From positions 17,867 to 81,866 of the forward strand of contig JBBIOI010000002.1 of assembly GCA_037443425.1 (NCBI GenBank): a stretch of 64,000 bases of DNA. The letters are read 5' to 3'. Shown here one piece after another: positions 14,026-58,352 of this stretch (positions are counted from its first letter, which is position 1; each line of letters starts with the position of its first letter). A program made the translations under genes and the position numbers. The notes below the pieces were generated by a model, which saw only the letters and a list, made by a program, of their open reading frames with translations, was not told the origin of the DNA and made no database searches. Source of the stretch: Deltaproteobacteria bacterium (GTDB taxonomy: Bacteria > Desulfobacterota > BSN033 > UBA1163).

Positions 14026-15461
14026 TAATGCTGTGGCATAAGAAGTTTGCTTTGCTATCACGCTGGAGTGTTGCAGCGGGAATAGTTCTTGCTATACTTT
14101 TGCTAGTATTCTGGGTTTACCTCCGTTTGGGAATCTCTTGGGACAATATACTTTTGGGTCTTTTGGTCGGTTATGGACTCCTGTTAGGAATCCGGTACCC
14201 CGTGTTCGCATTAGGCTTCGTTCTACTTTTATTGCCTCTTAAGGCACTGTATTTAGAAAGTGACCTTATTTATCTTCCGAAAGTGGCTATGGTTATACCC
14301 ATACTAGGCTTGCTGGCAGAGATATCGATAAGAAGGCGCCGATTACAATTGACGGGTTTGGAATGGCCTATTGGTATAACAGTCATACTCATAATGTTGC
14401 ACTATCCGAATAGTTTTCGTCCTTCCGAGGAACTCACTACCGTTTGGAGTCTATTATGCCTCTTTGGTCTTGTGGTAGTAATGGTAAATCTACTGACAGA
14501 TGAACGCTCACTGAGGTTTGCTGTTGTGCTATTCATGTTGTCGGCAGTAATTCCATCCTCCATTGCATACTTTCAATGGTTTACCGGACAACCTATCTTG
14601 GGTAGCGGGCCCATGTTTTTCCGCGATATCCCCAGAGCAACAGGCTCATTTACTAGTATCACCGGATTGGGTTGTTTCTTGAGTGCTTATTTTCCTTTCT
14701 ATGTTAGTTTACTTCTTCAGTGGCCGATTGCGTTTTTTCGGAAGAAACATTTAGATTGGATAGTCGTATTTTTCTGCTCTGGGCCGCTTATTATTGCATT
14801 TAATCGTGGTGGTATTTTTGCTGTTCTACTAGGTTTGTTGTTTTTAGTATATCGGTTGCGTAGTCATCGGAGGTTCAAGGTCAGTTTACTTATACTCGTA
14901 GGAGTAGGAGCATTACTGGTATTCATTTTATTTCACCCGGCATGGCAATTTAGGCTATTTGGCACGGGAGTGGGTAATACTCCAGAAGGCTACGAACAGC
15001 GGCTTCGTCAAACCAAAATGATTGGGTACATCCTTACAAATTATCCTCTCGGTGGTATTGGTCTTGGGAATTATCGCTTTCTAGCTACGGGCTGGCCACT
15101 TCGCCTTGCAGAGCAGCCACACAATTTACTGTTAACTTTTGCCGCAGCGGGGGGTGTTTTTGGTATTTTAACTCTGGCGTCGTTCATATTTATTCTTGCT
15201 AGGAAAGTCAGGCGCTCAAAAATTATTGATGTGCAACCAGTATTCTTATCAGGAGTGGTAGTAGAATCTACACTCGTTGCTCTTATTGGTTATACGGTGC
15301 AATTTCTAACTCATGGTGCCCTTGTGTCGGATACTCCATGGATATTGATAGGCTTTTTGATAGCAGGAAGCAATATCGTTCAGAGAGTTCAAAAAGAACG
15401 AAACCAAGTTATTTCCCAAGAAATACTTCAGAGGGCAAGGGCATTAAAGTGCCCACTTTAG
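14022..15461 (+). CDS. second O-antigen ligase / Wzy-like polymerase family membrane protein
   Basis: 479 aa, polytopic. The blocks NRGGIFAVLLGLLFL and GGIGLGNY...EQPHNLLLTFAAAGGVFG are typical of Wzy_C-type proteins. Ends at TAG 15459-15461. Confidence 0.7.
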   Translation: MIMLWHKKFALLSRWSVAAGIVLAILLLVFWVYLRLGISWDNILLGLLVGYGLLLGIRYPVFALGFVLLLLPLKALYLESDLIYLPKVAMVIPILGLLAEISIRRRRLQLTGLEWPIGITVILIMLHYPNSFRPSEELTTVWSLLCLFGLVVVMVNLLTDERSLRFAVVLFMLSAVIPSSIAYFQWFTGQPILGSGPMFFRDIPRATGSFTSITGLGCFLSAYFPFYVSLLLQWPIAFFRKKHLDWIVVFFCSGPLIIAFNRGGIFAVLLGLLFLVYRLRSHRRFKVSLLILVGVGALLVFILFHPAWQFRLFGTGVGNTPEGYEQRLRQTKMIGYILTNYPLGGIGLGNYRFLATGWPLRLAEQPHNLLLTFAAAGGVFGILTLASFIFILARKVRRSKIIDVQPVFLSGVVVESTLVALIGYTVQFLTHGALVSDTPWILIGFLIAGSNIVQRVQKERNQVISQEILQRARALKCPL

Positions 15462-26342: not shown

Positions 26343-27434
26343 TTAAATTCTCCCTTTTTCTTTCATAAGGCGGGTGATCAGATCTTTATAAGTTTTAGGT
26401 GGTATAACTCTTTTTTTCCTTTCTTTCATCTCGATTGCCCCAGTGGGGCAGAAATGGGCACAGACACCGCAACCAAGGCATGTTTCTTGGTCTGGAACCG
26501 GGTAATCTCCAACCATCTTTATTGCTTTAATCTGACAGTGCTCTTCACATTGAGCGCATCCATTACATTTTTCAAGAATAACGCTTGTAATATAGTTTGT
26601 AGTGGTAACAGCATTTTTTAAATGGTGTTTTGTTATTCCTTCAAGTAGTCCGCAACAACATCCGCAACAGTTACAGATAAAGGTGGTCTGTTCCATCACA
26701 TTGTCTCCCATATGAACTAAACCATAGTCTTCTGCCCTCTTTAATGCATCTAACAATTGATCCACATTGGCCCTCTTTGCAAATCCTTGTTCTACTAAAA
26801 AGTCTGATGCAGTCCCAAGGCTCATACAAATATCTTCAATCGGAGCAGAGCAGTTCTTTCCGAGATGCCATGCCTCATGACGACAATAACACCTCCCCAG
26901 ACTTCCACGGCCTGCCTTTCGTATATGTTCTTCTGCTTGATCAAAACTTAAAACCTCACTTCTTACTTTTGGGATAGCGTCACTGTACAGATAGGCTTTA
27001 GTCCTTGGTGTCTGGGAGAAAAATTCTTTGATAAATTCATTTGTGTTTCTATAAGTATACATCAATTCTGCAAGCCTTTTCATTGGAAGGGATTCATCCG
27101 TACGCATAAAGGTCATCTCAAAAAAACCAGTGACCCCTGGCGAGAGAAGATATTTCGTCTCTCCGCCCTTTAATGAAGAATAGATGAGTCCCTTTTTGAT
27201 CATTCCTTTTAAAATTTCTTCAAGCTCTTTTCGTTCCATTTCGGTTGCCTTTTGAATCTCATCAAATGTGACAAAACCAAATGGAAACTTCGATCCTACC
27301 TCAGCCTCCTTTTCACTAAAAAGGATTGCAAGGATTTCATAAAGACTGCTATGCTCGGGAAGGCCTATTGGATTATGATTAAGCCTCTTTTGAAGTTCTT
27401 TTAGAATATCCATTTTGCTCATTATGTGGCCCAT
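26343..27434 (-). CDS. Cys-rich Fe-S protein with two ferredoxin-type 4Fe-4S motifs and an N-terminal winged-helix-like segment
   Basis: CNGCAQCEEHCQ...CLGCGVCAHFCP (2 x CX2CX2CX3C), plus CYCRHEAWHLGKNC...C and the FICNCCGCCCGLL clusters. It is the last gene of the minus-strand operon. Confidence 0.6.
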   Translation of the reverse strand: MGHIMSKMDILKELQKRLNHNPIGLPEHSSLYEILAILFSEKEAEVGSKFPFGFVTFDEIQKATEMERKELEEILKGMIKKGLIYSSLKGGETKYLLSPGVTGFFEMTFMRTDESLPMKRLAELMYTYRNTNEFIKEFFSQTPRTKAYLYSDAIPKVRSEVLSFDQAEEHIRKAGRGSLGRCYCRHEAWHLGKNCSAPIEDICMSLGTASDFLVEQGFAKRANVDQLLDALKRAEDYGLVHMGDNVMEQTTFICNCCGCCCGLLEGITKHHLKNAVTTTNYITSVILEKCNGCAQCEEHCQIKAIKMVGDYPVPDQETCLGCGVCAHFCPTGAIEMKERKKRVIPPKTYKDLITRLMKEKGRI

Positions 27435-27459
27435 AATAAGTTTACCTCCTCTTTATATA

Positions 27460-27753
27460 TCAAACCCTGAAATGCTCTCCACTTGCCTTTCTTTTCCATC
27501 GAACCCTCTGAATAAGCGGAAGATTCAACTTAAGCGCACCTTTCCTTGGGCAATGCATAACACAAATCCCACAATACCAGCATTCATCAGGGAAGAGAAT
27601 AATAGGGGTTGATCCTTTTTGCGGATTTGGAATTAGAATATCCATGGGACATATATTAACACATATGTTACAGCCGTTACATCGTTTTTCATTAAAGATA
27701 AGAGGTCTGTTTGGTGTTATAGGATTCGGGATTGCATAGATTTTGGTTTTCAT
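27460..27753 (-). CDS. AprB-like 2x[4Fe-4S] ferredoxin subunit (short form)
   Basis: CNGCNICVNICPMDIL...FPDECWYCGICVMHCP. 4-nt overlap with the upstream flavoprotein gene. Confidence 0.7.
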   Translation of the reverse strand: MKTKIYAIPNPITPNRPLIFNEKRCNGCNICVNICPMDILIPNPQKGSTPIILFPDECWYCGICVMHCPRKGALKLNLPLIQRVRWKRKASGEHFRV

Positions 27754-29744
27754 TTCAACCCTTTCTTTTCCTTTATAGCTTGATTTTTTAAATATTCTTT
27801 ATTCCTTGATTCATAATTATCACTTAGAGAACCATAAAAATCGATTGGGAGATATGAAATTTTTACATCACCATCTACCTGTTTAAGGATAATAAACCTT
27901 TTCCATTCTGGTGGGTCCATCTCAGGAAAGTCATATCTATTAAAACCAAGAAATTTACTGCTTGCCTTTCTTGCAAGTGAACTATGTAGAATCATTTCAC
28001 AGCAAGTTAATATATCAATGACCTCGAGTGTTCGCATCAATCTATGGGGATCTGGTGCATAAAGTCGCGGCACCTCATTTTTAAAAATATCTTTAAACCA
28101 TAGAAGGCCAATCTTAAGAAGTTCCTCATTTTTTTGATCCCCACAATAGTTCTGCATAATCCTTGAACTTGCAGCATTCAGTTCCTTCCAATTGAGACCT
28201 TTTAAACGAGTATTTTTTGTAAGTGAATATATTCGAATCTTTTCTTCCTCCACCTGTTTTCTATCTATTTTTGCCTTTTTTATTTTATTAAGATTTTGAG
28301 AAGCCTTTCTTCCAGCATATCTCCCAGTTGCAGCAGCATGGTGATGATAATTTGAAGAAAAGAGTTGATCACCCGCAGCATAGAGACATTCAAGAGAGGT
28401 TTGGAGATTCCAATCTACCATTAGGCCCCCACATGGGCCGACTTCACCAAAAATCCTTTTATTGGGAGAAGCGGGGGTGCGAAGAGGATCTGAGCCTAAA
28501 AAAAGGTAGCTTTGAAGGAGGTCCTTATCAGGACAAAACCCAGCCCTTGTATAATTCTCATATATTGGGATTCTTGTTTTTCCCTCTTCACCCACCATCA
28601 ATCCCCAAATAACACGACGCTCATCATCGGGCATTCCTGGAAGGTCGGCGTATAATGGAAGAACAAACTCTCCCTTTCTTATTTTTTCTTCAAGATCAGG
28701 AATAAGTTGGGGTCTTTTGTATTCATAGGATTGAGACCTTTCCCCTAAAAATTTCTGACCCGAAGCTGGGATGCAACGTTCAAGAACCGTTTTCAGTATT
28801 TTTTCATTTCGATCAACCCATGGGATCTGCTTTCCATTTGCATCTACCATTGAACAGGGATACCATGTATTGAATGGATTTCCCTGACCATAAATTGGAA
28901 AGCCATTGCCACTTCCCATGATATGAGGGGTTGATTTTTCCATGAGTGTAAATTCAGCCCCTGCTCTGTATGCAATTGCATGACCATCACCCACATTTGT
29001 CTGTGGTCTTAATGTATCAAAACCAGTCAGTTCTGATTGGAATTGCCAGATCCTTTGTGGCCGAGAAAGGCAAAGTATCGTAGCCTTAGCATTGAATATA
29101 AAGAATTCACCCGTTCTAACATTGATTCCAGTGGCTCCAATAATCCTTTGCCCTTGCCTTCCTCTTTCATTTAATAATGAGGTGGCCATTATGCGGTCAA
29201 AAATCTTTACACCTAATCGTTTACATTCTTTGAACAACGAGGGTTTAAATGTTGTTCCCCATACTCTAAAATGAATCTTATTTTCATAATCATAAGCGAA
29301 GAGAAATTTTGTCTTTTCATCCCTAAATTTTGCCCCTTTGAATTCATCCTCAGTATCTCGAATCTTTCCCCCAATCTCCTCCAATTCAAGCAAGGTATCG
29401 AAGCTTTCCCTTGCTGATATATAGAAGGATATTGCATTGCAATAACCTCCTGAATCCAGTTGTTCAGCCTCTAAAATATCTTCAGCCGTAATTTTGGATA
29501 ATGGGTTTGGTGTTAGCACCCAATGGTCACAACCCGCCCCTCCAGCTCCGCTTCTTATGGTTGCTGCCTTCTCTACAATAGTAACATCTGCACCATTTCT
29601 CGAAGCACTAATAGCTGCCCAGCAGCCAGCAATACCGCCACCAAGGACAAGTATATCGGTTTCAATCAGGGTCTCTTTATCATAACGAATGGGATAAGGC
29701 CATTCAGGTAGGCCATAGCGCTTTATATATTCATTCCAGTCCAT
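27750..29744 (-). CDS. AprA / fumarate-reductase-like FAD flavoprotein (paralog 2, 664 aa)
   Basis: TDILVLGGGIAGCWAAISASRNG dinucleotide fold, a late LYAAGDQ motif, and a C-terminal capping region FNRYDFPEMDPPEWKRF. Confidence 0.75.
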   Translation of the reverse strand: MDWNEYIKRYGLPEWPYPIRYDKETLIETDILVLGGGIAGCWAAISASRNGADVTIVEKAATIRSGAGGAGCDHWVLTPNPLSKITAEDILEAEQLDSGGYCNAISFYISARESFDTLLELEEIGGKIRDTEDEFKGAKFRDEKTKFLFAYDYENKIHFRVWGTTFKPSLFKECKRLGVKIFDRIMATSLLNERGRQGQRIIGATGINVRTGEFFIFNAKATILCLSRPQRIWQFQSELTGFDTLRPQTNVGDGHAIAYRAGAEFTLMEKSTPHIMGSGNGFPIYGQGNPFNTWYPCSMVDANGKQIPWVDRNEKILKTVLERCIPASGQKFLGERSQSYEYKRPQLIPDLEEKIRKGEFVLPLYADLPGMPDDERRVIWGLMVGEEGKTRIPIYENYTRAGFCPDKDLLQSYLFLGSDPLRTPASPNKRIFGEVGPCGGLMVDWNLQTSLECLYAAGDQLFSSNYHHHAAATGRYAGRKASQNLNKIKKAKIDRKQVEEEKIRIYSLTKNTRLKGLNWKELNAASSRIMQNYCGDQKNEELLKIGLLWFKDIFKNEVPRLYAPDPHRLMRTLEVIDILTCCEMILHSSLARKASSKFLGFNRYDFPEMDPPEWKRFIILKQVDGDVKISYLPIDFYGSLSDNYESRNKEYLKNQAIKEKKGLK

Positions 29745-29780
29745 ATTTATCCTTCTTCATCAAATGGTGTTAATCTTTTG

Positions 29781-31559
29781 TTACTGAATAGGTATTTTAT
29801 TAAATTTCCAGTCACCAGTTTCATCTCTGCTTATAGCAAGAAATACATACCAATTATCATTGTCCTCCTCAGGATACTCTCTTCTATAAAAATCAAAGGC
29901 AGCTCTACTTTCTTTTCTCTCAATGGATGACCTCAATATCAATTCAGCATTATCAATAATCGATTTCACTTCAAGGCTTCTACTTAATTCGTGAGGATTT
30001 TCAGCCTTAAGCGGAGCTTGTTTTGCATCCTCAAGCCTTGTAAGTCCTCTTTTAAGGAGGCCCTCACCACGGATATCGCCACAATAAAAATCAATAAGAT
30101 TTTGAACATAGATTTCAACCTCTTTCCAGTAAAAGCCTTTTTTGCAATTCAAGATTTGACTGTATATCTCTCTTCTTTTCATTATCGTTTCTTTATCTAC
30201 TGAAAGAAATGCATTCTGTTCTTTAGCCCTTTTCTTTGCCATCTCACCTGCTCGCCAACCCATTGTCAGTGCACCAGGACCAGAGGCCCAGGGGACACCA
30301 CCTACCTCGTCTCCTGCCCCAAAAAGATTTCTAATATCTGTTTCCAAATCTTTATTTACCCATAATCCTTTAGCTGCTGTTCCTGCTAATTCACGGTTTG
30401 CCCAGCCTGCATATTCCTGAGGGTTCCTTCTTAAATCAAGTCTTTCCTCTTCTTCGAAATAACGCATAAACTGTGTACCCTTTCCTTCATTTCTTATTGA
30501 CCATCTTATATAATCAATTTCGTAATCAGTGGCTTCGGAGAAATCAAGAAAGAATGGCCCCTCTCCCTTAGAGACTCTTCTCGGTAACGAGGCACGACCA
30601 CCACGCCAGAGCTTTCTATCCTCCAGCCATTTTTTCCTTGTTTCAATGGGATCAAATCTTTCTTTACCAAGATTATCCCAATCATAAAAGTAGGTCCTCG
30701 GAACGATTATATTTCCAAAACCATCTATAATTCGAGCTGAAGGTTGAACCGTGTTTCTTGGATCACCATAATTTGGAGAATAGTATCCGCACACGGATAA
30801 TAGTCTTGAGCTTAGAAATTCGATATTAATTATTGGTAATCCAATTCTTATGGCCATAGATGTTCCATCACCTGTTAAAGTAGGTGGAAGCCTTGTATTG
30901 AAATCAACTCCCGAGGGATTTCTACTTAATCTATTAGACCTTCCTGAGGAGAGGATAACTGCCTTTGCTTTAAAAAAGTAGATATCTGCTGTGCGAGTGC
31001 CTATTCCTACAGCACCTGAAATCTGTCCATCAGTCTTTATTAGATCGGTCATCTGAACTCGATTAATAATATTAACCCCTCTTTTTTTTGCCTCATTTGT
31101 TAGTTTAAGCTTTAAAAATCTTCCGTCAAAATTAAAAGATGATGGTACACTATGGAATTGATATACGATTCTGAATTTGCCAGGGGCTTTGCTATCTTCA
31201 TATCTGAAATTTATACCAAATCTTTCAAGATCAAGAACCCTATCATATATCGATTCTGCAATTAGATAGAATAAGTCTTTTCTTAAAAAGCCAAAGGCCA
31301 CTGCCTGTTTATGATCCTCAAACATATCTTCGATACTGTAGCCCATCTTTTCATGAACCGGTGGTATATAGGCCCATAGGTGGTCTATACCCGATGAGGC
31401 ACATCCACTTGCAATAGTATTCGATTTTTCAACAAGCGTTACTTTTATATCCTGATCCTCAGATGCCTTTATTGCAGCCATTAGGCCTGCCAGTCCACCG
31501 CCAATTATCAAGACATCCGTTTCTAATGGAATTATTTGAGGTTCCATTTTAGCCTCCAC
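29781..31559 (-). CDS. AprA / fumarate-reductase-like FAD flavoprotein (paralog 1, 592 aa)
   Basis: TDVLIIGGGLAGLMAAIKAS dinucleotide fold, a late LFGAGDEVGG motif, and a C-terminal FYRREYPEEDNDNWYVF. Confidence 0.75.
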   Translation of the reverse strand: MEAKMEPQIIPLETDVLIIGGGLAGLMAAIKASEDQDIKVTLVEKSNTIASGCASSGIDHLWAYIPPVHEKMGYSIEDMFEDHKQAVAFGFLRKDLFYLIAESIYDRVLDLERFGINFRYEDSKAPGKFRIVYQFHSVPSSFNFDGRFLKLKLTNEAKKRGVNIINRVQMTDLIKTDGQISGAVGIGTRTADIYFFKAKAVILSSGRSNRLSRNPSGVDFNTRLPPTLTGDGTSMAIRIGLPIINIEFLSSRLLSVCGYYSPNYGDPRNTVQPSARIIDGFGNIIVPRTYFYDWDNLGKERFDPIETRKKWLEDRKLWRGGRASLPRRVSKGEGPFFLDFSEATDYEIDYIRWSIRNEGKGTQFMRYFEEEERLDLRRNPQEYAGWANRELAGTAAKGLWVNKDLETDIRNLFGAGDEVGGVPWASGPGALTMGWRAGEMAKKRAKEQNAFLSVDKETIMKRREIYSQILNCKKGFYWKEVEIYVQNLIDFYCGDIRGEGLLKRGLTRLEDAKQAPLKAENPHELSRSLEVKSIIDNAELILRSSIERKESRAAFDFYRREYPEEDNDNWYVFLAISRDETGDWKFNKIPIQ

Positions 31560-31561
31560 CT

Positions 31562-31798
31562 TTACCTAAGAAATCCACCTCTCATGGGAAATGGTGTCAC
31601 TATCTTAATAGCCCCTTTTTCACTTTGGGGACAGAATGTTATACAGCATCCACAGAACCAGCATTCATCAGGATACATCTCAATAGGTGGCTTCCCTTTT
31701 TGTGGATTTGGGGCTAATGCATCACACATACAAACATCTACACAGACATTACAGCCAGTACATGAATCTTCACTAAAATATATATGTCTGTAACCCAT
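31562..31798 (-). CDS. AprB-like 2x[4Fe-4S] ferredoxin subunit (short form)
   Basis: CTGCNVCVDVCMCDAL...YPDECWFCGCCITFCP. It lies 2 nt upstream of the flavoprotein gene and overlaps the permease stop by 26 nt. Confidence 0.7.
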   Translation of the reverse strand: MGYRHIYFSEDSCTGCNVCVDVCMCDALAPNPQKGKPPIEMYPDECWFCGCCITFCPQSEKGAIKIVTPFPMRGGFLR

Positions 31799-33680
31799 TT
31801 CTTAACCTCCAAGTTTTGTTCCTTTTCCAGTTATAAATTATTGCAATTATTAATAGTATAGTCCCTGATATGAATAAAATGGTCTTGAAATCCATTATGA
31901 AGTATAAAAATAAAAGGATACCTCCTGCGCCAGTTAATATCCTTTCGAATAATTTACAATTGGTAAAGATAAATCCTACAAAGTTTATTTCAAATGCAAG
32001 AAGGCAGGTAGCACTTGCAATAATAGAAATTATCCCCTGGAAGGGTTCTTTAGATTTAAGCAATAAAAAAGGTGAATAAATAAACATAAATGGGATAAGG
32101 AATCCTCCTATTGCAATCTTCATTGATTCCACTGCTGTCTTCATATATTTTGCATTTGCAAGCTTTGCGGCTACAAGGGATGCCATTGCAACAGGAGGTG
32201 TAACAAATGCAAAGCTTGCCATGTACATAATAAAAAAGTTTGCCTCTTCAAACCCCACTTTCATTTTAACGAGTGCAGGGACTGCAAATACAGAAAGAAT
32301 GAAATATGCAGTAAGGGCAGCACCAGCACATCCCAAGACAAAACAGATGGCCGCAATGATCAGCAGGGCAAGAAATAGGTATCCCCCACTCCATAACATT
32401 ATTCCTGATGAGAGCTTAACTCCTAAGCCACTTAGTGTAAGTGTGGCCATAACCATTCCAATACAGGCTGCCGATACTCCAATGCCTGCTCCAGCCCTTG
32501 CGCCCTTTACAAATCCCTCGATTATGTCAGTCAGTTTTGGACGATCTTCCTTCAGGAAATTAATGAGGATCGAGCTTATAATAGCCCAAAAGGCTACATA
32601 CATAACACTGTAGCCCTTTATCAAGAGATATATTATAACCAAAAAAGGTATAAGGAAGATTAAAAGGGAGAGAATGATTTCTTTTAACTCTATCTTTTCT
32701 TCAGGTATTCTACCTATCTGAAGTTTTCCAGATCTTAGGTAAACATATAAACCAACTCCCCAGTAGTATAACAGTGCTGGGATAACAGCCATGGTAATTA
32801 TCTTTAAATAAGGAATACCAGTAAGCCCAGCCATTCCAAAGGCTACGATTCCCATAACAGGTGGCATTATCAGTCCACCTGTGGAGGCGGAAGCCTCAAT
32901 TGCAGCTGCGTGCTCAGGTTTGTAGCCCGTCTTCTTCATTAGGGGAATGGTAAATGATCCTGTAATCACAACATTTGCAGCTGCACTCCCTGTTATCGAG
33001 CCCACAATAGAGCTACTGATTACTGCCATCATCCCAGGGCCTCCTCTGATTCTACTTGCCAGTATCCGAGCCAGTATCATAAATATACGTGTTCCTCCAA
33101 GTGATTGAAGTACAGCCCCGAAGATTACAAATAAGAAGATAAAATTGGCAGATGTTGGCAGTGCAACTCCAAATATTCCATTAACAAGGCCAATAGAAAG
33201 ATTTGATATGGTCTGGGCAATATCATATGCAGTGCAACGAAAAGGTTCTGGAAGATTTTTTCCAATAAAAGGATAACCTATAGCAATAATAGTAATAATT
33301 GGAAGTATTAAACCAAATTCCCTGCGAGTTGCCTCGATAACGAGGATAATGAGTATGACACCAGTGATTAAATCCAGTGTCGTATTGAAATAGGCTCTAT
33401 TTTCAAGCTCTTTCCAATTTAATTGGATATAGCCTGTTGAGAGAAAAGAAAAAACCGCAAGGACTAAAAAACATAACTTCGAGAGGCGGGTCTTTCCTTT
33501 GAGGATTCCGTCAAAAAATACCAACAAAAGTGATAAACCAAGGTGAGTATTTAGATGGGGTTTTGGGGCCTGAAGTAGCACCTGGGAGGAAATCATATGA
33601 TAGGCAGACATAAAGATACCAAGGATGAGAAATAGAAGATATAATCTGTTTTCCCTGACTTCTTTTAGCCAGTTTGACAT
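31773..33680 (-). CDS. TRAP transporter fused (4TM+12TM) permease, TAXI-associated type
   Basis: 635 aa and highly hydrophobic, the length typical of fused TRAP permeases. It is adjacent to a TAXI-like binding protein. Confidence 0.8.
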   Translation of the reverse strand: MSNWLKEVRENRLYLLFLILGIFMSAYHMISSQVLLQAPKPHLNTHLGLSLLLVFFDGILKGKTRLSKLCFLVLAVFSFLSTGYIQLNWKELENRAYFNTTLDLITGVILIILVIEATRREFGLILPIITIIAIGYPFIGKNLPEPFRCTAYDIAQTISNLSIGLVNGIFGVALPTSANFIFLFVIFGAVLQSLGGTRIFMILARILASRIRGGPGMMAVISSSIVGSITGSAAANVVITGSFTIPLMKKTGYKPEHAAAIEASASTGGLIMPPVMGIVAFGMAGLTGIPYLKIITMAVIPALLYYWGVGLYVYLRSGKLQIGRIPEEKIELKEIILSLLIFLIPFLVIIYLLIKGYSVMYVAFWAIISSILINFLKEDRPKLTDIIEGFVKGARAGAGIGVSAACIGMVMATLTLSGLGVKLSSGIMLWSGGYLFLALLIIAAICFVLGCAGAALTAYFILSVFAVPALVKMKVGFEEANFFIMYMASFAFVTPPVAMASLVAAKLANAKYMKTAVESMKIAIGGFLIPFMFIYSPFLLLKSKEPFQGIISIIASATCLLAFEINFVGFIFTNCKLFERILTGAGGILLFLYFIMDFKTILFISGTILLIIAIIYNWKRNKTWRLRNGLQTYIF

Positions 33681-33709
33681 ATTTAAATTTTTAAGTAAAG
33701 GATAGGCAA

Positions 33710-34756
33710 TTAAAACCCAAGTCCCTTTATTTTAACTCCTTTCTCTTTGAAGAATTTCTGGGCTGATGGATGATATGCCACCTCTGGAATTCCTAAAGAG
33801 GCCAGGGATTCTTTTGTTATGATCTCAGCCATTGGGGTATACTCTTTTAATAGATGTGCATTCTCATAAACCACCCTCAGTATCTCCTGTACAACATCTT
33901 CGGGCATGTCTATGTGGGCACAAAAACCAAGGGGTTTAAGAAGAATTGTATAGGGTTCTGTTTGAAGTGGCCCCAGGATTTTTGGTGGTAATACCTGAAA
34001 GTCTACAGGATGTCCTGTTTTATCCTTGAAGGATTTTATTCCCTTCTCTTCGAAAGAGATAAAGTATACATTTTTTGTTGCAACAAGTTCAGCAGTAAAA
34101 GGACTTGCCACATGGGTGTGAGGCAGTGTTTTTATTGCTGATCCACTATAGATGACATCTGCCATGCCATCTCTTAATGCTGCTGAGGCAGATTCACCAG
34201 ATGCATATTGATATTTCAATTTATCTACTGGAATACCAAGCTCATTCATTATACCCTTGTAGACAATTTCACGACCACCACCAGGTGTTGAGTCAAAGAT
34301 AACCCTTTTACCAATCATATCCTTTAGGGTCTTTAAGTTTGGATCAAGTGTACAGAGTCCATTTCCTGCAACTCCCATTAAAAAGATAAAACGGAACTCA
34401 TCATAATTGAATGGAACCTTTTCAAAAGGTCCTATCCTCTTTTTAGCCTCCCATATATCCCAGGTTGTATTAAAAAAGAGATAATTCTTTCTTTTTTCAG
34501 GCTTTGTAATCAATGTCCTCATATGAACTACTGGACTTCGTCCCTCAATATGAGTAGCCTTTATCATTGTACTCTTCTTATTGATCAGATCAGCCAGCCC
34601 AACACCTATAAGATAGGAGGCAAACCCTGTTGGAAGGGTTGATATCTCAAGCTGAAAGGGTTCCCTCTTAGTTTGAGCCTTTAAATGAGAAGAGAAAGTG
34701 AATAGATAAATTATTATTAAAACAATGTTTAGAAGAATGTACTTTCTTCTTGGCAT
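33710..34756 (-). CDS. TAXI-family TRAP transporter solute-binding protein
   Basis: Signal peptide (LNIVLIIIYLFTFSSHLKAQ) and a ~350 aa periplasmic-binding-like protein directly upstream of the fused permease. The assignment rests on context plus general resemblance. Confidence 0.65.
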   Translation of the reverse strand: MPRRKYILLNIVLIIIYLFTFSSHLKAQTKREPFQLEISTLPTGFASYLIGVGLADLINKKSTMIKATHIEGRSPVVHMRTLITKPEKRKNYLFFNTTWDIWEAKKRIGPFEKVPFNYDEFRFIFLMGVAGNGLCTLDPNLKTLKDMIGKRVIFDSTPGGGREIVYKGIMNELGIPVDKLKYQYASGESASAALRDGMADVIYSGSAIKTLPHTHVASPFTAELVATKNVYFISFEEKGIKSFKDKTGHPVDFQVLPPKILGPLQTEPYTILLKPLGFCAHIDMPEDVVQEILRVVYENAHLLKEYTPMAEIITKESLASLGIPEVAYHPSAQKFFKEKGVKIKGLGF

Positions 34757-34776: not shown

Positions 34777-35178
34777 TTATTTAATACCTAATCTTGATGC
34801 AATTCGACTATTGATTGTTTGAGAATAGGTCTCATCACCAAATATTCCTACCCGAATCTTTAGAAGTGTTGTTCCCGTTCCCCCTTGCGAAAGTTCGATC
34901 TTGATTTTTGTTCCATCGTTTCTTCTTGCCTCAATATTACCTGTTATTTTGTCCCTTTCTGTGTGAATAACTTTTATGTCAAGATCTTTTAGCGCCCCAA
35001 GGGTAGCATCCCATGCCCTGTCTAAAGTCGTAGGGTAGGTTGTTTGTAATTCACCTTTAATATAGGAAACCGTTGCCACTCCAGCACCAGCTCCAGCACC
35101 TACAGCTAAAAGCATACAACCCTGAATCAATAGATTCAGGGACAAGATCAATAATGAGAATATCTTCAAAATATTCAC
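34777..35178 (-). CDS. small lipoprotein, DUF3568-like
   Basis: Lipobox LIQGC after a signal peptide. A 133-aa beta-rich protein ending IRVGIFGDETYSQTI. The DUF number is from memory. Confidence 0.5.
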   Translation of the reverse strand: MNILKIFSLLILSLNLLIQGCMLLAVGAGAGAGVATVSYIKGELQTTYPTTLDRAWDATLGALKDLDIKVIHTERDKITGNIEARRNDGTKIKIELSQGGTGTTLLKIRVGIFGDETYSQTINSRIASRLGIK

Positions 35179-35194
35179 AAAAATTACCTCCCCT

Positions 35195-36727
35195 TTATGT
35201 TATCAAATTTCTATCCAGGCTTCGATATTGAATTGCCTCAGAGAGATGGTGTGAGAGAATATTTTCTTCACCCTCAAGATCTGCAATTGTGCGGGCAACC
35301 TTCAGTATACGAGTATACGCCCTTGCACTTAAACCAAACTTATCAATAGCGGTTTCGAGTAATTTCTGACTTGCTTCATCAATCTGACAGAACTTCTTTA
35401 TGTGACGATTATTCATCTGTGCATTACAGTAAATCTTCATCCCTTTAAACCTATCAAGTTGAATCTTTCTTGCCTTATTGACCCTCTTCTTTATCTCACT
35501 TGATGGTTCACCTGGGTCTCGGCTTGCAAGATCACGATACTTAACAGCAGGAACCTCGATATGGATATCTATTCGATCCATTAGTGGCCCAGAAATCTTT
35601 GAACGATATCGGTGGATCTGAGGTAGGGTACAGCTGCATTCATTATTTGGATCACCGAAATAACCACAGGGACATGGATTCATTGCTGCAATCAGCATGA
35701 ATCGGGCAGGATATGTAAGGGATGTGGCAGCACGAGAGATTGTTACCCTCTCTTCCTCCAATGGCTGGCGCATTACTTCAAGGACATTTTTTTTAAATTC
35801 CGGCAATTCATCAAGGAATAGCACGCCATTATGTGAAAGACTTACTTCACCTGGTTTTGGAATCTGGCCCCCACCAATGAGTCCTGCATCTGAAATTGTA
35901 TGATGTGGACTTCTAAAAGGTCTTGTAACTATCAAAGAACTATCAGGAGGAATAAGCCCCATAACGCTATGGATCTTTGTAGTTTCGAGACTTTCTTCGA
36001 AATTCATATCAGGCAAGATGGTTGGTAATCGTTTTGCAAGCATTGTCTTTCCAGATCCAGGAGGGCCGATCATAATGACGTTATGTCCTCCGGCAGCTGC
36101 AACTTCAAGACATCGCTTAACATGCTCCTGACCTTTTACATCATTGAAATCTACCTGATAGTTTGACTCTGTTCTAAAGATTTCATCAAGATCAACTTCA
36201 ACAGGATTGACATGGATGTTTCCATTAAGAAATTCAACACACTGGGATAGGGTGTCCAATGGTAGGACCTCTATCCCCTTTACGACTGCTGCCTCCTTGG
36301 AGTTGGATCTTGGAAGAAGGACTCCCTTTAGGCCCGAATCCCTTGCAGCAACAGCAATTGGTAGTGTCCCTTTTATGGGTTTTATCTGACCATCGAGTGA
36401 TAACTCACCAAGAATAAAATAGTCATTAAGTTTTTCCTTTTTTACAATCTCTGTTGCGGTAAGGATTCCAATGGCTATTGGTAAATCAAATGCAGCACCC
36501 TCCTTTTTAATATCAGCAGGGGCAAGGTTTACAGTAATTCTCCTTGATGGAAAATCGTAGCCACAATTCTTTATCGCTGCTTTTACTCTATCCTTCGACT
36601 CTTTTACTGCCCCTTCAGGAAGTCCAACAGTTGCAAAAGTTGGAAGGCCAAGAGATATGTCAACCTCTACCTCAACCACATAAGCATCTATCCCAAAAAC
36701 TGCACTGCTAAGAACTCGAGCTAACAT
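35195..36727 (-). CDS. comM: YifB/ComM-family Mg-chelatase-like AAA+ ATPase
   Basis: Lon-like N-domain, Walker [19 protein letters not shown], Walker [12 protein letters not shown], and a C-terminal ChlI-like tail. Confidence 0.9.
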
Positions 36728-40122: not shown

Positions 40123-40980
40123 ATGAAAAGGATTGTTCCTGTTCAAGGGTTAACCATTTTTTTTATAATCGGTCTTCTAATCCTGACCATTGTTTCTCAT
40201 CCGAGGATACCCCTTTGGCAATCCTTAGTCCTTTTCTATCTGATGTTATTGACCTCCTTATTCGCCCTTAAATATTCTTTTGATAAAATTGGTGGAAGAT
40301 TAATCGAATTCTTATTTGACTTTTCACCAGTCATATTTGTTATTCTTATCTATGAATCGCTTGGAAGTCTAATACCATATATTCGATCCGATATCGATCC
40401 TTTACTAATCAAAATTGATTTTTTTATCTTTGGCAATCATCCAAGCCTATGGATGGAGCGTTTTACCACCCCCTGGTTTACAGATCTTATGTCACTTTCG
40501 TATTTGAGTTATTATTTTATTCCAGTCGTTTTAATTTCAGTCCTTTATCTAAAGGATAAGATAATAGAGTTTAATAATGCCATGTTTGTGCTTACATTTG
40601 GATACTATCTTTCATTTGTTGGATATATCCTCTTTCCAGCAATAGGTCCTCGTTTTACCCTTGAAAATCTATATTCAATCCCTCTGAAAGGAAGCTTTAT
40701 TACAGATTTCGTAAGAGATACATTAAATGCACTTGAGCATAATAAAAGGGATTGCATGCCGAGTGGACATACCCAGATTGTCCTCATGGTTTTATATCTT
40801 GCCTCGAGATATGAAAGACTCCTTTTCTATATATTTTTACCAATCATCTGCCTACTTATTCTATCTACTATTTATCTGAGATACCATTATGTAGTTGACC
40901 TATTTGCCGGAGTTATTTTTGCAATTACCTCCATCTTAGTATCAAACTACATATATAAAAAATGGCAAAAAGGGTTTTAA
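40123..40980 (+). CDS. PAP2_C-type membrane enzyme (inositol-phosphorylceramide / sphingomyelin-synthase-like)
   Basis: Six or more TM helices. CMPSGHTQIV (SGHT) and RYHYVVDLFAG (HYxxD) resemble the D3/D4 motifs of the sphingomyelin/IPC synthase family. Confidence 0.65.
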   Translation: MKRIVPVQGLTIFFIIGLLILTIVSHPRIPLWQSLVLFYLMLLTSLFALKYSFDKIGGRLIEFLFDFSPVIFVILIYESLGSLIPYIRSDIDPLLIKIDFFIFGNHPSLWMERFTTPWFTDLMSLSYLSYYFIPVVLISVLYLKDKIIEFNNAMFVLTFGYYLSFVGYILFPAIGPRFTLENLYSIPLKGSFITDFVRDTLNALEHNKRDCMPSGHTQIVLMVLYLASRYERLLFYIFLPIICLLILSTIYLRYHYVVDLFAGVIFAITSILVSNYIYKKWQKGF

Positions 40981-42086
40981 ATTTCACTCTCATATATTCT
41001 ATAAGTTTTATAGCGTCTCCCTCCCATTGCCTCAATTCCACGTTGCATAAGAATATTGTTCTCCAATATCCAGGAGCATTCTGCATGCTTATAGCCTTTT
41101 TCGATTCCCCTTTTAAAGGTTTCAATATAAAGTAATGCCTCAACCCCCCTCTTCTGAAAATCATTTCTTACCCCTAAGAGCATAACCCGAAGGGTCTTGA
41201 TCATTCTTGAGTAGTAAAGATATTTGAAAAACCCAGTGATCCCAATCCTACCATTAAGGTGTTTAAGTACTTCGTTATAATCTGGAAGTGAAACTGAAAA
41301 TCCAACAGGTTTATCTTCCATATATGCGAAAAGAACCAATTCTGGGACAGAGATTGGCTTAAGGTCTTTTGCCAGGTGGTCAATCTCCTCATCTGTCATC
41401 GGAACAAAACCCCAATTATTGGTCCAAGCGTCATTATATATGTCTTTTATGATATTTAATTCATTTTTAAAATCCTTAAGATTAAGACTACGTACCCATA
41501 GCCTTGGTTCTTTTCTTTTAATCTTTTCCTCAAATCGGAAGAGACGATCTGAAAGGAATGTCTCCCTATCCAGCCAATACGCATAGAGGTCCATTGCCTT
41601 TCTTAACCCAAATTCTTCAATCAATTGAGGGTAGTATGGAGGATTATAAGGCATCATTAAACAGGGATATAATTCAAAGCCATCGATTAGTAAACCACAT
41701 TCATCATTAGTTGAAGGATTCATTGGTCCTGCCATTCTTTGCATTCCATGATCTTTAAGCCATTCTTTGACGTTTGTCAGTAGTACCTTAGAGACTTCAG
41801 AATCATATATGGATTCAAAAAATCCGAAGAAACCAAGCCTTTCATTATGGAAACGAATATAATGATGATCGATAATACCTGCAATCCTACCTACAACCTC
41901 GCCTCCTCTTTGTGCTAAAAGTAATATCAAATCAGAATGGGATAAAAATGGGTTTTGAGGGCTAAATTTTTTAAGCTGGTCTTTAATTAATGGTGGTACC
42001 CATCGGTCACAATCTTTGTATATCTTCCATGGTAGTTTAATAAAATCTAATAGTTCCTTTTTATCTTTTACCTCTTTTATAATCAC
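40977..42086 (-). CDS. GNAT-fold acyltransferase, candidate bacterial ceramide synthase
   Basis: 369 aa, with WVPPLIKDQ..., GRIAGIIDH...GFFGFFES, and a C-terminal GVRNDFQKRGVEALLY acyl-CoA-binding-like block. The functional call rests on synteny with the Spt and SDR genes. Confidence 0.5.
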   Translation of the reverse strand: MIIKEVKDKKELLDFIKLPWKIYKDCDRWVPPLIKDQLKKFSPQNPFLSHSDLILLLAQRGGEVVGRIAGIIDHHYIRFHNERLGFFGFFESIYDSEVSKVLLTNVKEWLKDHGMQRMAGPMNPSTNDECGLLIDGFELYPCLMMPYNPPYYPQLIEEFGLRKAMDLYAYWLDRETFLSDRLFRFEEKIKRKEPRLWVRSLNLKDFKNELNIIKDIYNDAWTNNWGFVPMTDEEIDHLAKDLKPISVPELVLFAYMEDKPVGFSVSLPDYNEVLKHLNGRIGITGFFKYLYYSRMIKTLRVMLLGVRNDFQKRGVEALLYIETFKRGIEKGYKHAECSWILENNILMQRGIEAMGGRRYKTYRIYESEI

Positions 42087-58082: not shown

Positions 58083-58172
58083 GGAGAGGTTGCCGAGCTG
58101 GTTTAAGGCGCCGCTCTCGAAAAGCGGTTCTCCCCAAAGGAGACGTGGGTTCGAATCCCACCCTCTCCGCCA
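58083..58172 (+). tRNA. tRNA-Ser (anticodon CGA)
   Basis: Hand-folded cloverleaf: acceptor GGAGAGG/CCTCTCC, anticodon stem CCGCT/AGCGG with loop CTCGAAA, long variable arm, T-arm GTGGG-TTCGAAT-CCCAC, and encoded CCA. Confidence 0.9.
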
Positions 58173-58222
58173 ATTATAAGAAGAGTATAGTAACGAGCGA
58201 TATTAGCTGAGCGGTTATAAAT

Positions 58223-58317
58223 GGAGAGATGCCCGAGTTGGCCGAAGGGGCACGACTGGAAATCGTGTGTTCCGACTAAAATCGGAACCGAGGGTTCGAA
58301 TCCCTCTCTCTCCGCCA
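58223..58317 (+). tRNA. tRNA-Ser (anticodon GGA)
   Basis: Acceptor GGAGAGA/TCTCTCC, anticodon stem CACGA/TCGTG with loop CTGGAAA, long variable arm GTTCCGA/TCGGAAC, T-arm GAGGG-TTCGAAT-CCCTC, and encoded CCA. Confidence 0.9.
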
Positions 58318-58352
58318 TAATCTGATGGATTTATATAGAGCTTGAAAAGGTC

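Follow-up and report, generated by a model that had tools for sequence, protein, structure and literature searches.

A minus-strand gene cluster comprising seven open reading frames (ORFs) lies at positions 26343-34756 of the 64-kb window, that is, the whole stretch of DNA analysed (64,000 nucleotides), and all seven ORFs were recovered at the positions given in the initial annotation. Together with the two genes that precede them, the features are as follows.

comM, 35195-36727, minus strand: separated by a 16-nt gap from the DUF3568 gene
DUF3568 lipoprotein gene, 34777..35178, minus strand: lipobox-like LIQGC, Pfam DUF3568 at 101.6 bits, lineage-specific companion
TAXI, 33710..34756, minus strand: TRAP solute-binding protein of the TAXI family, 348 aa, whose N-terminal segment is hydrophobic and signal-like
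TRAP, 31773..33680, minus strand: fused permease of DctQ-DctM type, 635 aa
Fd78, 31562..31798, minus strand: 2x[4Fe-4S] small subunit, partner of Fl592, with an AprB/PAPSR-beta-like core and no tail
Fl592, 29781..31559, minus strand: FAD flavoprotein in a new clade of AprA-like proteins, with the signature G57-I-D59-H60-L-W62
Fl664, 27750..29744, minus strand: FAD flavoprotein paralogous to Fl592, in a second new clade with the signature G71-C-D73-H74-W75
Fd97, 27460..27753, minus strand: 2x[4Fe-4S] small subunit, partner of Fl664
FeS363, 26343..27434, minus strand: 363-aa Cys-rich Fe-S protein, lineage-specific neighbour outside the core

Gene layout

From TAXI to FeS363 the junctions calculated from the coordinates are +29, -26, +2, +36, -4 and +25 nt, the negative values being overlaps, of TRAP with the start of Fd78 (26 nt) and of Fd97 with the stop of Fl664 (4 nt). 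The tight co-directional run of seven genes with gaps of 0-36 nt or overlaps, as initially described, thus stands, except that the full run counts nine genes, because comM and the DUF3568 gene precede TAXI with gaps of 16 and 20 nt. Homologues at 60-88% identity, numbering in the hundreds to thousands for every gene, show that the genes are real. Fl592 starts with GTG, and gene callers elsewhere take an ATG 12 nt downstream, giving 588 aa. Scans for promoters, terminators and riboswitches at the cluster found nothing; from gene spacing alone, we infer that the cluster is co-transcribed. The absence of sat, qmo and dsr, first remarked on for the surroundings of the cluster, extends over the whole 64-kb window, which also holds no apr gene.

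The importer genes

By its Pfam match (NMT1_3, 68 bits) the binding protein clearly classifies as NMT1_3/TAXI, despite an NCBIfam TRAP_TAXI score of 83.2 bits that falls just below the cut-off of 84.35; solved TAXI proteins are only remote matches to it (E about 1e-5). The permease scores 497.5 bits with TIGR02123 (TRAP_fused, cut-off 320.65) and also matches Pfam DctM. TRAP and TTT systems are mainly known as importers of carboxylates or sulfonates, in part from PMC4646407.

The flavoproteins Fl592 and Fl664

Profile searches found FAD_binding_2 and Succ_DH_flav_C domains in both large proteins, which are 30% identical (E = 3e-58) and keep their FAD-binding motifs. The AprA/fumarate-reductase architecture attributed to them agrees with domains and fold alike, and the strings on which this attribution was based are present, namely DVLIIGGGLAGLMAAIKAS and DILVLGGGIAGCWAAISAS in the N-terminal FAD fold, the late motif GAGDE/AAGDQ and the C-terminal YRREYPEEDNDNW and NRYDFPEMDPPEW. 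The best PDB match is the PAPS reductase chain 8a8o_A for Fl592 (E = 6e-42) as for Fl664 (E = 3e-24), and both have the AprA/PAPS-reductase fold (TM 0.75-0.80 to 8a8o). For the AlphaFold2 model of Fl592 (pLDDT 82.7), Foldseek gave TM values of 0.75/0.80 to 8a8o and 0.76/0.70 to 2fja. The best curated model of Fl592 is PRK08275 (246 bits, cut-off 587); aprA gives 113 bits (cut-off 642), and Fl664 likewise stays far under both cut-offs (218 and 96 bits).

In AprA, the sulfo group is held by N74, H398, W234 and R265 (PMC2211403), residues that are kept wholly or partly in PAPSR and in the PRK08275 clade. In both window clades Asn74, Trp234 and His398 are replaced and Arg265 is unconserved. The place of the Asn74 stretch is occupied by a G-x-D-H-(x)-W motif, invariant in all Fl592-like and Fl664-like sequences, distant ones included. 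As initially pointed out, SGAGGAGCDHW is present where AprA has SGAVAQGLSAIN, a string that is correct for A. fulgidus AprA. The loops standing in for W234, R265 and H398 are of low confidence in the Fl592 model, and the capping domain cannot be aligned with that of AprA and carries insertions. A distance tree places both clades outside the grouping of AprA, PAPSR and PRK08275, so that neither flavoprotein lies inside bona fide AprA. With their catalytic residues replaced, the large proteins do not count as orthodox AprA.

The small subunits Fd78 and Fd97

The two ferredoxins are 49% identical and both carry CxxCxxCxxxC...PDECW(F/Y)CGxC...CP. Fd78 matches Pfam Fer4_7 and, over the ferredoxin core only (positions 7-61 of 132), the aprB model at 20.5 bits; Fd97 matches Fer4 and the core of aprB at 30.3 bits, with PDB matches that include PAPSR beta (8a8o_C, 1.5e-6) and AprB (1jnr_B, 1.4e-4). 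An AprB-like signature lacking the long C-terminal tail, as first reported, is thus what these proteins have, and it resembles the core of AprB and PAPSR beta.

Conservation of the module

The order TAXI-TRAP-Fd-Fl-Fl-Fd recurs in about ten species-level genomes, all metagenome-assembled genomes (MAGs), at 52-72% identity per gene. TAXI orthologues (52-89% identity) adjoin redox genes in about 45 loci, and a reverse search from the binding protein yielded 39 metagenome loci with TRAP and AprA-like genes downstream wherever sequence allows. The proposed tie between redox genes and TAXI-TRAP importer is thereby borne out in both search directions. A GntR/FCD regulator usually accompanies the module and lies upstream in about 20 distinct loci. 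All module loci come from uncultured organisms, mostly Desulfobacterales/Syntrophobacterales-type MAGs, with relatives in Acidobacteria, Gemmatimonadales, Moorellales and Chloroflexota MAGs.

The two pairs can be separated. The orthologous importer is found with the Fl592 pair only (L048-50), with the Fl664 pair only (L069/70) or with two Fl664-type genes (L052), and other importers adjoin either pair alone or otherwise combined (L003, L008, L016, L017, L025). Four other importer types (DctP-TRAP, TTT, LIV-type ABC and Opp-type ABC) also have related pairs next to them. Since some importer loci keep only one pair, the heterotetramer or two successive steps suggested at first are unlikely as obligate arrangements. 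Nor does the mirror order of the pairs have special meaning, because each subfamily has its own fixed gene order: an Fd78-type gene precedes the Fl592-type gene in almost all loci that include this region, and an Fd97-type gene follows the Fl664-type gene in nearly all complete loci, the second copy in L052 being without one.

Among the loci compared, neither conserved downstream pathway genes nor a conserved product exporter were found. Some lineages have catabolic neighbours (Mo-hydroxylase, CoA ligase, Amidohydrolase_2, a reductive-dehalogenase (RDH)-like gene), and five loci contain 5-oxoprolinase genes.

FeS363, initially counted with the redox genes, belongs to a separate three-gene set and is absent from most module loci. 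It adjoins Fd97 in the lineage of the window (L031-33, L040), the only loci in which the DUF3568 gene is kept with the cluster, and is otherwise absent except in L074, where it follows a 2-hydroxyacid dehydrogenase (2-HADH) gene. Elsewhere its family forms a widespread set with RDH-like and 2-HADH genes (RDH-like/2-HADH/FeS364), and this trio is found repeatedly, though just in some cases, at the edge of the module. Apart from the C-terminal 2x[4Fe-4S] domain, nothing in FeS363 is recognised, and its model is weak (pLDDT 60; residues 31-97 may form a winged helix). The protein may serve as an electron conduit or a sensor, as first suggested.

Relation to known systems

The best match in sequence and fold is MtPAPSR of Methanothermococcus thermolithotrophicus (PDB 8a8o; Jespersen et al. 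2023, PMC10322725). With this enzyme and with the 'AprAB-like' paralogues of the DiSCo paper (PMC8477390) the window pairs share an FAD alpha subunit, a 2x[4Fe-4S] beta subunit that is short (about 100 aa) and tail-less, and the lack of a Qmo partner. However, identity to MtPAPSR is only 24-28%; MtPAPSR keeps the AprA catalytic residues, whereas the window proteins have N74, W234 and H398 replaced and possess the D-H...W motif and capping-domain insertions. The context also differs, an organic-anion importer as opposed to sulfate-assimilation genes.

AprAB (PDB 1jnr/2fja, 3gyx) shares the superfamily branch, the overall domain plan (TM 0.76/0.70), an S-G motif of the non-covalent-FAD type and, from sequence, the PDxCW-type Trp after the first Cys of the second cluster motif of the small subunit. 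Unlike AprAB, the window proteins score far under the TIGR02061/TIGR02060 cut-offs and have neither the AprB tail nor sat/qmo linkage, in addition to the residue changes given above.

The PRK08275 clade of cultured aerobes (for example Aquabacterium olei pTB101 WP_109038721.1, Paraburkholderia sprentiae and Pseudanabaena), on which no publication was found in the searched literature, has the locus GntR - flavoprotein - ferredoxin - SsuA-like ABC importer - HEAT-repeat protein and in many cases TauE/SafE in the vicinity. It resembles the window in uniting regulator, importer, AprA-like flavoprotein (27-30% full-length identity) and small ferredoxin, but retains Asn74 and His398, has an aromatic residue where AprA has Trp234, groups with PAPSR/AprA and uses a sulfonate-type ABC importer with a HEAT protein.

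FrdA, SdhA and NadB have the same two Pfam domains (TM about 0.70 to E. coli FrdA), and their theme, hydride chemistry at FAD N5 on carboxylates, may hold for the window enzymes too. Identity is 15-20%, the window proteins have neither the covalent-FAD His nor the Arg/His set that binds dicarboxylates, and the partner is an 8-Cys ferredoxin in place of the three-cluster SdhB-type subunit with a membrane anchor. In Salmonella, TcuABC (tricarballylate utilisation) joins a transporter to a flavoprotein dehydrogenase of the fumarate-reductase family and an Fe-S partner for electron transfer; together they make a usable metabolite from an imported carboxylate, and no other dedicated pathway genes are needed. 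With TcuA distant (NF006130, 29-43 bits), TcuB a membrane Fe-S/haem protein and the transporter of another family, the likeness is an analogy of design only, not membership.

Proposed function and alternatives

Searches of literature and homology found no characterised close homologue or relative, and the initial statement that no characterised enzyme has this organisation agrees with the searched literature. An AprA-like build without the AprA catalytic residues probably means that this operon, conserved in uncultured sulfate-reducer-type bacteria, performs redox chemistry not yet described. The core would be a six-gene, substrate-inducible module in which the TAXI protein and the fused TRAP permease bring in an organic anion. 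It would be acted on by Fd78-Fl592 and Fl664-Fd97, two cytoplasmic enzymes paralogous to each other. Each combines an FAD subunit with a tail-less 2x[4Fe-4S] subunit, as AprAB and PAPS reductase do; neither is an APS or PAPS reductase. Their two sister clades have lost the sulfo-group-binding residues and gained the invariant Asp-His...Trp, which would lie beside the flavin N5 edge, together with a remodelled, enlarged capping domain rich in conserved Arg. At FAD N5 a carboxylate would undergo ordinary two-electron (hydride-type) chemistry, with catabolic dehydrogenation perhaps the likeliest direction; this account as a whole is preferred tentatively, at a probability somewhat under one half. 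From alignment position, the conserved His might serve as acid/base along with roles for Asp and Trp, and capping-domain Arg residues could hold the anion. Electrons would leave by way of the small subunit's two clusters for an external carrier, which could be a ferredoxin or an Fe-S protein like FeS363. The pairs are presumably independent alpha-beta (or alpha2-beta2) enzymes, because either occurs alone with the orthologous importer, and probably serve two related forms or steps of one imported compound.

The same architecture might run reductively, as in cytoplasmic fumarate-, urocanate- or enoate-like reductases or a reductive catabolic step, low-potential electrons from the [4Fe-4S] subunit reducing a C=C or similar bond of the imported acid. 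The superfamily is rich in reductases, the nearest characterised relatives (AprAB in sulfate reducers, PAPSR) both run reductively, L018 and L041-L043 have a gene of the reductive-dehalogenase family next to the module, and a conserved unit of importer, enzyme and regulator without downstream pathway genes is what would be expected if the product were simply released. High-affinity binding-protein importers and GntR/FCD regulators, however, go more typically with the catabolism of nutrients than with bulk electron acceptors; furthermore, no product exporter is conserved and fumarate-type residues are absent, with no HGANRLG-type Arg after the AAGD motif, making this direction rather unlikely. 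Retained sulfur chemistry is a more doubtful proposal still: a sulfo group (sulfonate, sulfate ester or sulfite addition) of an imported organosulfur acid would be cleaved or formed via a flavin N5-sulfite adduct as in AprA, with sulfite going to respiration or assimilation. In its favour are the nearest characterised enzymes (APS and PAPS reductases), the SsuA/TauA-like importer, HEAT and TauE/SafE genes of the next clade (PRK08275), a TauE/SafE gene directly upstream of the GntR gene in the TAXI-type L015, a Cys/Met PLP enzyme gene downstream in L052 and the predominantly Desulfobacterales/Syntrophobacterales-type hosts. Yet the sulfo-group residues (roles: PMC2211403) are lost or unconserved in both clades, TauE occurs in just 1 of about 60 loci, the 64-kb window has no sulfur-metabolism genes, and relatives extend to the four other host groups named above.

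It is quite improbable that both pairs form one obligate alpha-beta-alpha'-beta' enzyme replacing alpha2-beta2, in which perhaps just one site is catalytic or the two flavins bifurcate electrons. AprAB and PAPSR are indeed alpha2-beta2 heterotetramers, the pairs are adjacent and co-conserved in most TAXI-type loci, and both flavoproteins keep FAD-binding motifs; against this stand the loci with a single pair type or with the pairs otherwise combined, and neither flavoprotein looks like a degenerate subunit because both clades keep the full D-H...W motif. That the proteins are divergent but genuine APS or PAPS reductases is almost certainly wrong, even though PAPSR and AprA are the top PDB and fold matches and a homologue carries the name 'adenylylsulfate reductase, subunit A' in one JGI record. 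Scores of 96-113 bits (aprA) and 218-246 bits (PRK08275) already contradict this identity, as do the replaced catalytic residues, and the unalignable capping domain, the missing AprB tail and the lack of sat, qmo or sulfate-assimilation genes nearby point the same way.

Counter to the main reading, still the best explanation, run the sulfite chemistry of both closest characterised relatives, AprA and PAPSR, and the TauE/SafE gene beside the regulator in one locus and the Cys/Met PLP enzyme in another.

Gene organization of the module and its importer

All seven minus-strand genes described in the initial annotation are present at their positions, every motif quoted for them is found in the translations, and Pfam and NCBIfam bear out the domains assigned to the flavoproteins, ferredoxins, TRAP permease and TAXI protein. 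Together with the two genes preceding them, they are as follows.

35195-36727, same direction as the module: comM
34777-35178, same direction: DUF3568 lipoprotein gene, wedged between comM and TAXI
33710-34756, minus strand: TAXI binding protein (NMT1_3/TAXI)
31773-33680, minus strand: TRAP fused permease (TRAP_fused, 497.5 bits; cut-off 320.65)
31562-31798, minus strand: Fd78, small ferredoxin (eight-Cys di-cluster; Pfam/NCBIfam)
29781-31559, minus strand: Fl592, flavoprotein (FAD_binding_2 and Succ_DH_flav_C)
27750-29744, minus strand: Fl664, flavoprotein (FAD_binding_2 and Succ_DH_flav_C)
27460-27753, minus strand: Fd97, small ferredoxin (eight-Cys di-cluster; Pfam/NCBIfam)
26343-27434, minus strand: FeS363, Cys-rich Fe-S protein

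From TAXI to FeS363 the successive junctions measure +29, -26, +2, +36, -4 and +25 nt. The tight co-directional run begins two genes earlier, with comM and the DUF3568 gene (gaps of 16 and 20 nt); outside the window's lineage (related loci L031-33 and L040), the DUF3568 gene does not accompany the cluster. A TAXI-type binding protein and a fused DctQM permease are encoded together; the binding protein scores 68 bits on NMT1_3 (cut-off 27) and 83.2 bits on TRAP_TAXI, marginally under the cut-off of 84.35. Solved TAXI structures match it only at E ~1e-5, which is too remote for ligand transfer. The Rfam scan found no RNA element near the operon, its only hits being one SRP RNA and two tRNAs far away, and the promoter and terminator scans, which gave fewer matches than shuffled sequence, are uninformative.

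Family affiliation and fold

Fl592 and Fl664 are paralogues (30% identity, E = 3e-58), and their partner ferredoxins Fd78 and Fd97 share 49% identity. Both flavoproteins possess the superfamily-level domains of succinate dehydrogenase/fumarate reductase (Sdh/Frd) flavoproteins, with FAD_binding_2 and Succ_DH_flav_C over the Pfam gathering scores (75-102 and 33-40 bits, respectively). Among curated models the best match is PRK08275 (NF006131), on which Fl592 and Fl664 reach 246 and 218 bits against a cut-off of 587 and a score of 1110 for a true member (Aquabacterium). The model of the APS reductase alpha subunit AprA (TIGR02061) follows with 112.6 and 96.3 bits, far under its cut-off of 641.75, and the SdhA, FrdA, TfrA and NadB models all score lower, at 40-128 bits against cut-offs of 450-930. 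The best solved structure is the PAPS reductase of M. thermolithotrophicus (PAPSR or MtPAPSR, 8a8o; E = 6e-42 for Fl592 and 3e-24 for Fl664), with Archaeoglobus fulgidus AprA second and SdhA/FrdA after. The AlphaFold2 model of Fl592 (73 sequences; pLDDT 82.7, pTM 0.89) superposes most closely, in Foldseek, on 8a8o (TM 0.75/0.80) and 2fja (0.76/0.70), with FrdA (~0.70) behind them, at an identity of just 21-24%.

The small subunits match PAPSR-beta (8a8o_C, 104 aa) at 1.5e-6 and AprB at 1.4e-4, in both cases through the ferredoxin core alone; on the 132-position aprB model they cover only positions 3-61, with 20-30 bits for a cut-off of 135.65. AprB consists of a ferredoxin core and a long C-terminal tail wrapped around AprA (about 150 aa), whereas Fd78 and Fd97, with 78 and 97 aa, lack this tail. 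As in PAPSR-like systems, each is a tail-less 2x[4Fe-4S] subunit encoded by a gene that adjoins or overlaps a flavoprotein gene. 'AprAB-like' paralogues devoid of the AprB tail had already been described and proposed to act in sulfur assimilation (PMC8477390), a role demonstrated later (PMC10322725). Curated models, solved structures, predicted fold and small-subunit matches therefore establish an AprAB/PAPSR-like architecture, in agreement with the AprA-like architecture originally read for both pairs.

Neither the scores nor the partner subunit nor the substrate residues allow assignment as fumarate reductase, SDH or NadB, which is rejected. Sdh/Frd enzymes use an SdhB-type [2Fe-2S][4Fe-4S][3Fe-4S] partner, in contrast to the eight-Cys di-cluster ferredoxins of the window, and the HGANR-type Arg of Frd, one of its dicarboxylate-binding His/Arg residues, is missing from the segment after the AAGD motif in the window flavoproteins. 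The module also resembles the TcuABC-type design, in which a transporter accompanies a Frd-family flavoprotein and an Fe-S partner, but is not a member of that family.

An active site distinct from that of APS and PAPS reductases

In AprA the flavin is surrounded by Leu70, Asn74, Trp234, Arg265 and His398, in addition to an adenine clamp (PMC2211403), and MtPAPSR keeps the catalytic set of APS reductase (PMC10322725). To compare the corresponding sites, Fl592 and Fl664 were aligned with PAPSR-alpha (covering residues 9-562) and the greater part of AprA, both rebuilt from HMMER printouts, as well as with three genuine PRK08275 members and eleven relatives.

Active-site segments of AprA-type flavoproteins and of the two clades of the window (AprA numbering)
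Site 68-76: AprA, QGLSAINTY; PAPSR, AGVNAINAY; PRK08275, MGMDGLNNA; Fl592-like, (S/T)G(I/V)DHxW(A/S)Y; Fl664-like, xG(C/V)DHWxxx
Around Trp234: AprA, TWY; PAPSR, MWY; PRK08275, TYE; Fl592-like, NTR/NRR; Fl664-like, TLR/FRP etc.
Site 260-268: AprA, RFIPFRFKD; PAPSR, RFIALRVKD; PRK08275, (Y/F)QINPL(I/M)KD; Fl592-like and Fl664-like, 13-residue insertion, KD missing
His398 region: AprA, outside the rebuilt fragments; PAPSR, GGHGQAG; PRK08275, SGHSASG; Fl592-like, GTAAKG / SSA(A/S)G; Fl664-like, no equivalent

The catalytic residues of AprA are replaced or not conserved. Asn74 becomes Trp in Fl592 and Val in Fl664, Trp234 becomes Arg or Leu, and His398 is either Thr or has no equivalent; Arg265 corresponds merely to a non-conserved Arg (R252) in some Fl592 members and is absent from Fl664, a 13-aa insertion lying at this site. 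The window proteins differ from PAPSR at four of its four sites (GVNAIN, MWY, RFIALRVKD and GGHGQAG). Each of the two family alignments, like the combined one of 73 sequences, instead shows an invariant Asp-His...Trp motif. The capping domain cannot be aligned with that of AprA by phmmer or profile search, including the region of the Arg-A317/Leu-A278 adenine clamp and the hydrophobic nucleotide channel; it holds an insertion of ~45-60 residues with conserved Arg, e.g. GDPRNTVQPxxR in Fl592. The low-confidence loops of the Fl592 model (217-229, 252-260 and 388-392) fall on the stretches that replace W234, R265 and H398.

A neighbour-joining tree, indicative only, since it is midpoint-rooted on 519 columns without bootstrap or Sdh/Frd outgroup and combines a partial AprA with a near-full PAPSR, separates three groups: Fl664-like, Fl592-like and PRK08275 with PAPSR and AprA. 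The first two thus appear, by this indicative placement, to be clades outside AprA/PAPSR/PRK08275. The initial view that the flavoproteins are not orthodox AprA holds, both in the replaced catalytic residues and in curated scores far under cut-off, and the phylogeny it called for does not place them, indicatively, inside bona fide AprA. A canonical APS or PAPS reductase is rejected on the same scores and residues. The reported lack of nearby sulfur genes is likewise correct: none of sat, apr, qmo and dsr occurs in the 64-kb window, and linkage to sat/qmoABC (or aprM/hdr) is found neither there nor in ~60 related loci.

A search of plasmid proteins retrieved a related clade in cultured aerobes, composed of true PRK08275 flavoproteins (1110 bits). 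In the three cases examined, from Aquabacterium olei, Paraburkholderia sprentiae and Pseudanabaena sp. (L037:7253-14209, L038:7243-14276 and L039:2195-14038), the cluster comprises a GntR or LysR regulator, the PRK08275 flavoprotein, an 81-aa ferredoxin, an SsuA/TauA-like ABC importer and a HEAT-repeat protein, and two of the three also have TauE/SafE close by; 57 plasmid records match. In contrast to the clades of the window, this clade keeps Asn74 and His398 and groups with PAPSR, which fits sulfur chemistry. The cluster has the appearance of an AprA-like system for organosulfur compounds or sulfite, so far uncharacterised.

Conservation of the module

Homologues of Fl592 and Fl664 are numerous, mostly in MAGs of Deltaproteobacteria/Thermodesulfobacteriota, and bear generic names ('FAD-dependent oxidoreductase', 'succinate dehydrogenase/fumarate reductase flavoprotein'), except in one source that labels a homologue 'adenylylsulfate reductase, subunit A'. 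A scan with one genome per species yielded 25 loci, without exception in MAGs. When the window proteins are mapped onto the loci, the order TAXI-TRAP-Fd78-Fl592-Fl664-Fd97 recurs in ~10 species, with each gene 52-72% identical. In the nearest relatives (L031-L033, 83-99% identity) the whole block from DUF3568 to FeS363 is retained, in the same chromosomal neighbourhood. Conversely, when metagenome contigs were scanned with an alignment of the binding protein, 39 loci were obtained in which, wherever downstream DNA suffices, a TRAP permease and then AprA-like genes follow, mostly in the standard order. The predicted co-conservation of importer and redox genes is therefore borne out from both search directions. 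In a comparison of 64 loci, no partner recurs broadly except importer components and a regulator of the GntR/FCD type; this regulator lies upstream of TAXI in ~20 distinct loci, though not in the window's lineage. The module is real, widespread and uncharacterised, and comes from uncultured organisms only. The literature searched on AprA-like proteins, TAXI, PRK08275, HEAT/sulfonate systems and proteomics includes the 'AprAB-like' family of sulfur assimilation and no paper on the clades of the window; the ORM2 benzene paper deals with canonical AprAB only.

Variants and genomic neighbours

Fl592-type genes always have the ferredoxin gene in front of them and Fl664-type genes always have it behind, so that the 'mirror order' stressed initially means no more than the juxtaposition of two fixed subfamily orders. 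One locus, L017:287-6398, reads TRAP - Fd - Fl592-like - Fl592 - Fd, still B-A-A-B with both flavoproteins of Fl592 type. Orthologous binding proteins (55-64% identity) also accompany Fd78-Fl592 only (L048-50, with a CMD-family gene next), Fl664-Fd97 only (L069/70) or two Fl664-type genes (L052, which has a Cys/Met PLP enzyme as neighbour). These single-pair loci argue against an obligate alpha-beta-alpha'-beta' complex and against the fixed two-step route suggested at first; they favour two independent enzymes, which would share one imported compound or act on closely related ones. Pairs of these clades are also found beside DctP-type TRAP, TTT (TctC), LIV-type ABC and Opp-type ABC importers.

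Lineage-specific neighbours hint at catabolism without agreeing on a substrate. Five loci (L015:931-5468, L001:4424-4927, L061:4488-6202, L064:125-898 and L071:6743-8472) carry 5-oxoprolinase-type genes (PxpA/B/C) upstream of the GntR-TAXI module and divergent from it, and L015 has genes for D-glutamate cyclase and a TauE/SafE permease in addition; they may be a substrate hint (glutamate or a lactam-type compound) or merely reflect shared synteny of related lineages. Amidohydrolase_2 genes occur in four loci (L006, L041, L043 and L057). In L041:1408-9756, the genes running in the same direction as the module are those of a molybdenum hydroxylase with three subunits (MoCo, FAD and 2Fe-2S), of a CoA ligase of the AMP-forming type, of Amidohydrolase_2 and of a reductive-dehalogenase (RDH)-like protein, an aromatic or heteroaromatic-acid catabolic context seen in one lineage.

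FeS363 and the RDH-like trio

FeS363, initially counted in the module, is missing from most module loci and has its own conserved context; a core-subunit role is thereby rejected, and the protein is treated as accessory, a candidate electron conduit or sensor. Its family is very uniform (364 aa, ~70% identity, ~3000 matches) and belongs, in other Thermodesulfobacteriota, to a trio made of a cytoplasmic RDH-family protein (TIGR02486, 193 bits; cut-off 160), a D-2-hydroxyacid dehydrogenase (2-HADH) and FeS364, with NUDIX, EamA, HDAC-like and PaaK-like genes nearby (L034:3893-7095, L035 and L036). The FeS363 model is weak (pLDDT 60); its C-terminal part is a di-cluster domain, and residues 31-97 may form a winged helix. 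Foldseek returns local ferredoxin-domain matches only, those to winged helices being insignificant.

Trio members border the module repeatedly: Fd97 is followed by FeS363 in the window's lineage and by the RDH-like gene in L018, the RDH-like gene lies directly upstream of TAXI in L041-L043, and L074 has the order Fd97, 2-HADH, FeS363. L074 appears to be of the same lineage as L041, judged from identical scores on shared genes alone, in which case the trio encloses the module at this locus. The proximity could mark an ancestral site of insertion or denote a functional link (electron partner, shared pathway). The HDAC-like gene that usually neighbours the trio is present in L078 too, and the next ORF resembles, by eye, a PaaK-type ligase. 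RDH-like matches after Fd97 in L009, L010 and L015 were discarded as most likely alternative-frame artefacts over conserved Fd97, as judged from frame and coordinate overlap only.

Proposed function

The analysis shows two FAD/2x[4Fe-4S] enzymes, coupled to an importer and controlled by a regulator, that combine the AprAB/PAPSR architecture with a different active site. An imported organic acid, its anion held by Arg residues of the capping domain, would undergo two-electron chemistry at FAD N5, with the conserved His, assisted by Asp, as putative acid/base, and electrons would be exchanged, through the small subunit, with ferredoxin or with an Fe-S partner. For this chemistry, catabolic dehydrogenation is tentatively favoured, at somewhat under even probability; operation of the pairs as reductases seems unlikely, and retention of sulfur chemistry, by enzymes of this architecture that differ from PAPSR at every compared site, quite improbable. 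It is possible, if rather doubtful, that the G-x-D-H-(x)-W clades form an unrecognised branch of the AprA lineage in which sulfite-adduct chemistry was swapped for ferredoxin-linked oxidation or reduction of organic acids, that importer and enzymes act as a plug-in toolkit of uncultured sediment Desulfobacterota, and that the paralogues of the TAXI form take two isomers or related forms of one compound; the lineage-specific neighbours would then point to glutamate/5-oxoproline-type compounds or (halo)aromatic acids as candidate substrates.

Sulfate reduction and sulfur oxidation are traced with AprA-type flavoenzymes as markers, and a large sister group that shares their architecture but has another active site can be mis-annotated, which can distort metagenomic inferences on the sulfur cycle; the D-H...W signature is a simple discriminator from AprA-type enzymes. 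Because uncultured Desulfobacterota commonly carry these genes, and always beside dedicated importers, the genes probably represent an unrecognised route of sediment anaerobes to dissolved organic acids. The layout, a single importer with two enzymes, offers a tractable entry point, since the ligand of the binding protein identifies the enzyme substrate.

Other features of the window

The remainder of the window consists of a polysaccharide-biosynthesis cluster (295-22526) and housekeeping genes. Within this cluster, a NusG-family gene (2539-3087) may encode a specialised RfaH-like antiterminator for this long operon. Three sizeable ORFs have no Pfam match at E <= 1e-12 (14022-15461, 479 aa; 40977-42086, 369 aa; 54669-55580, 303 aa). 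A very large DUF748 protein of 1414 aa is encoded at 50393-54637 (Pfam, 1152 bits over four matched stretches), and at 58083-58459 two tRNA genes and then a small SRP RNA lie just upstream of dnaX (58510-60282).
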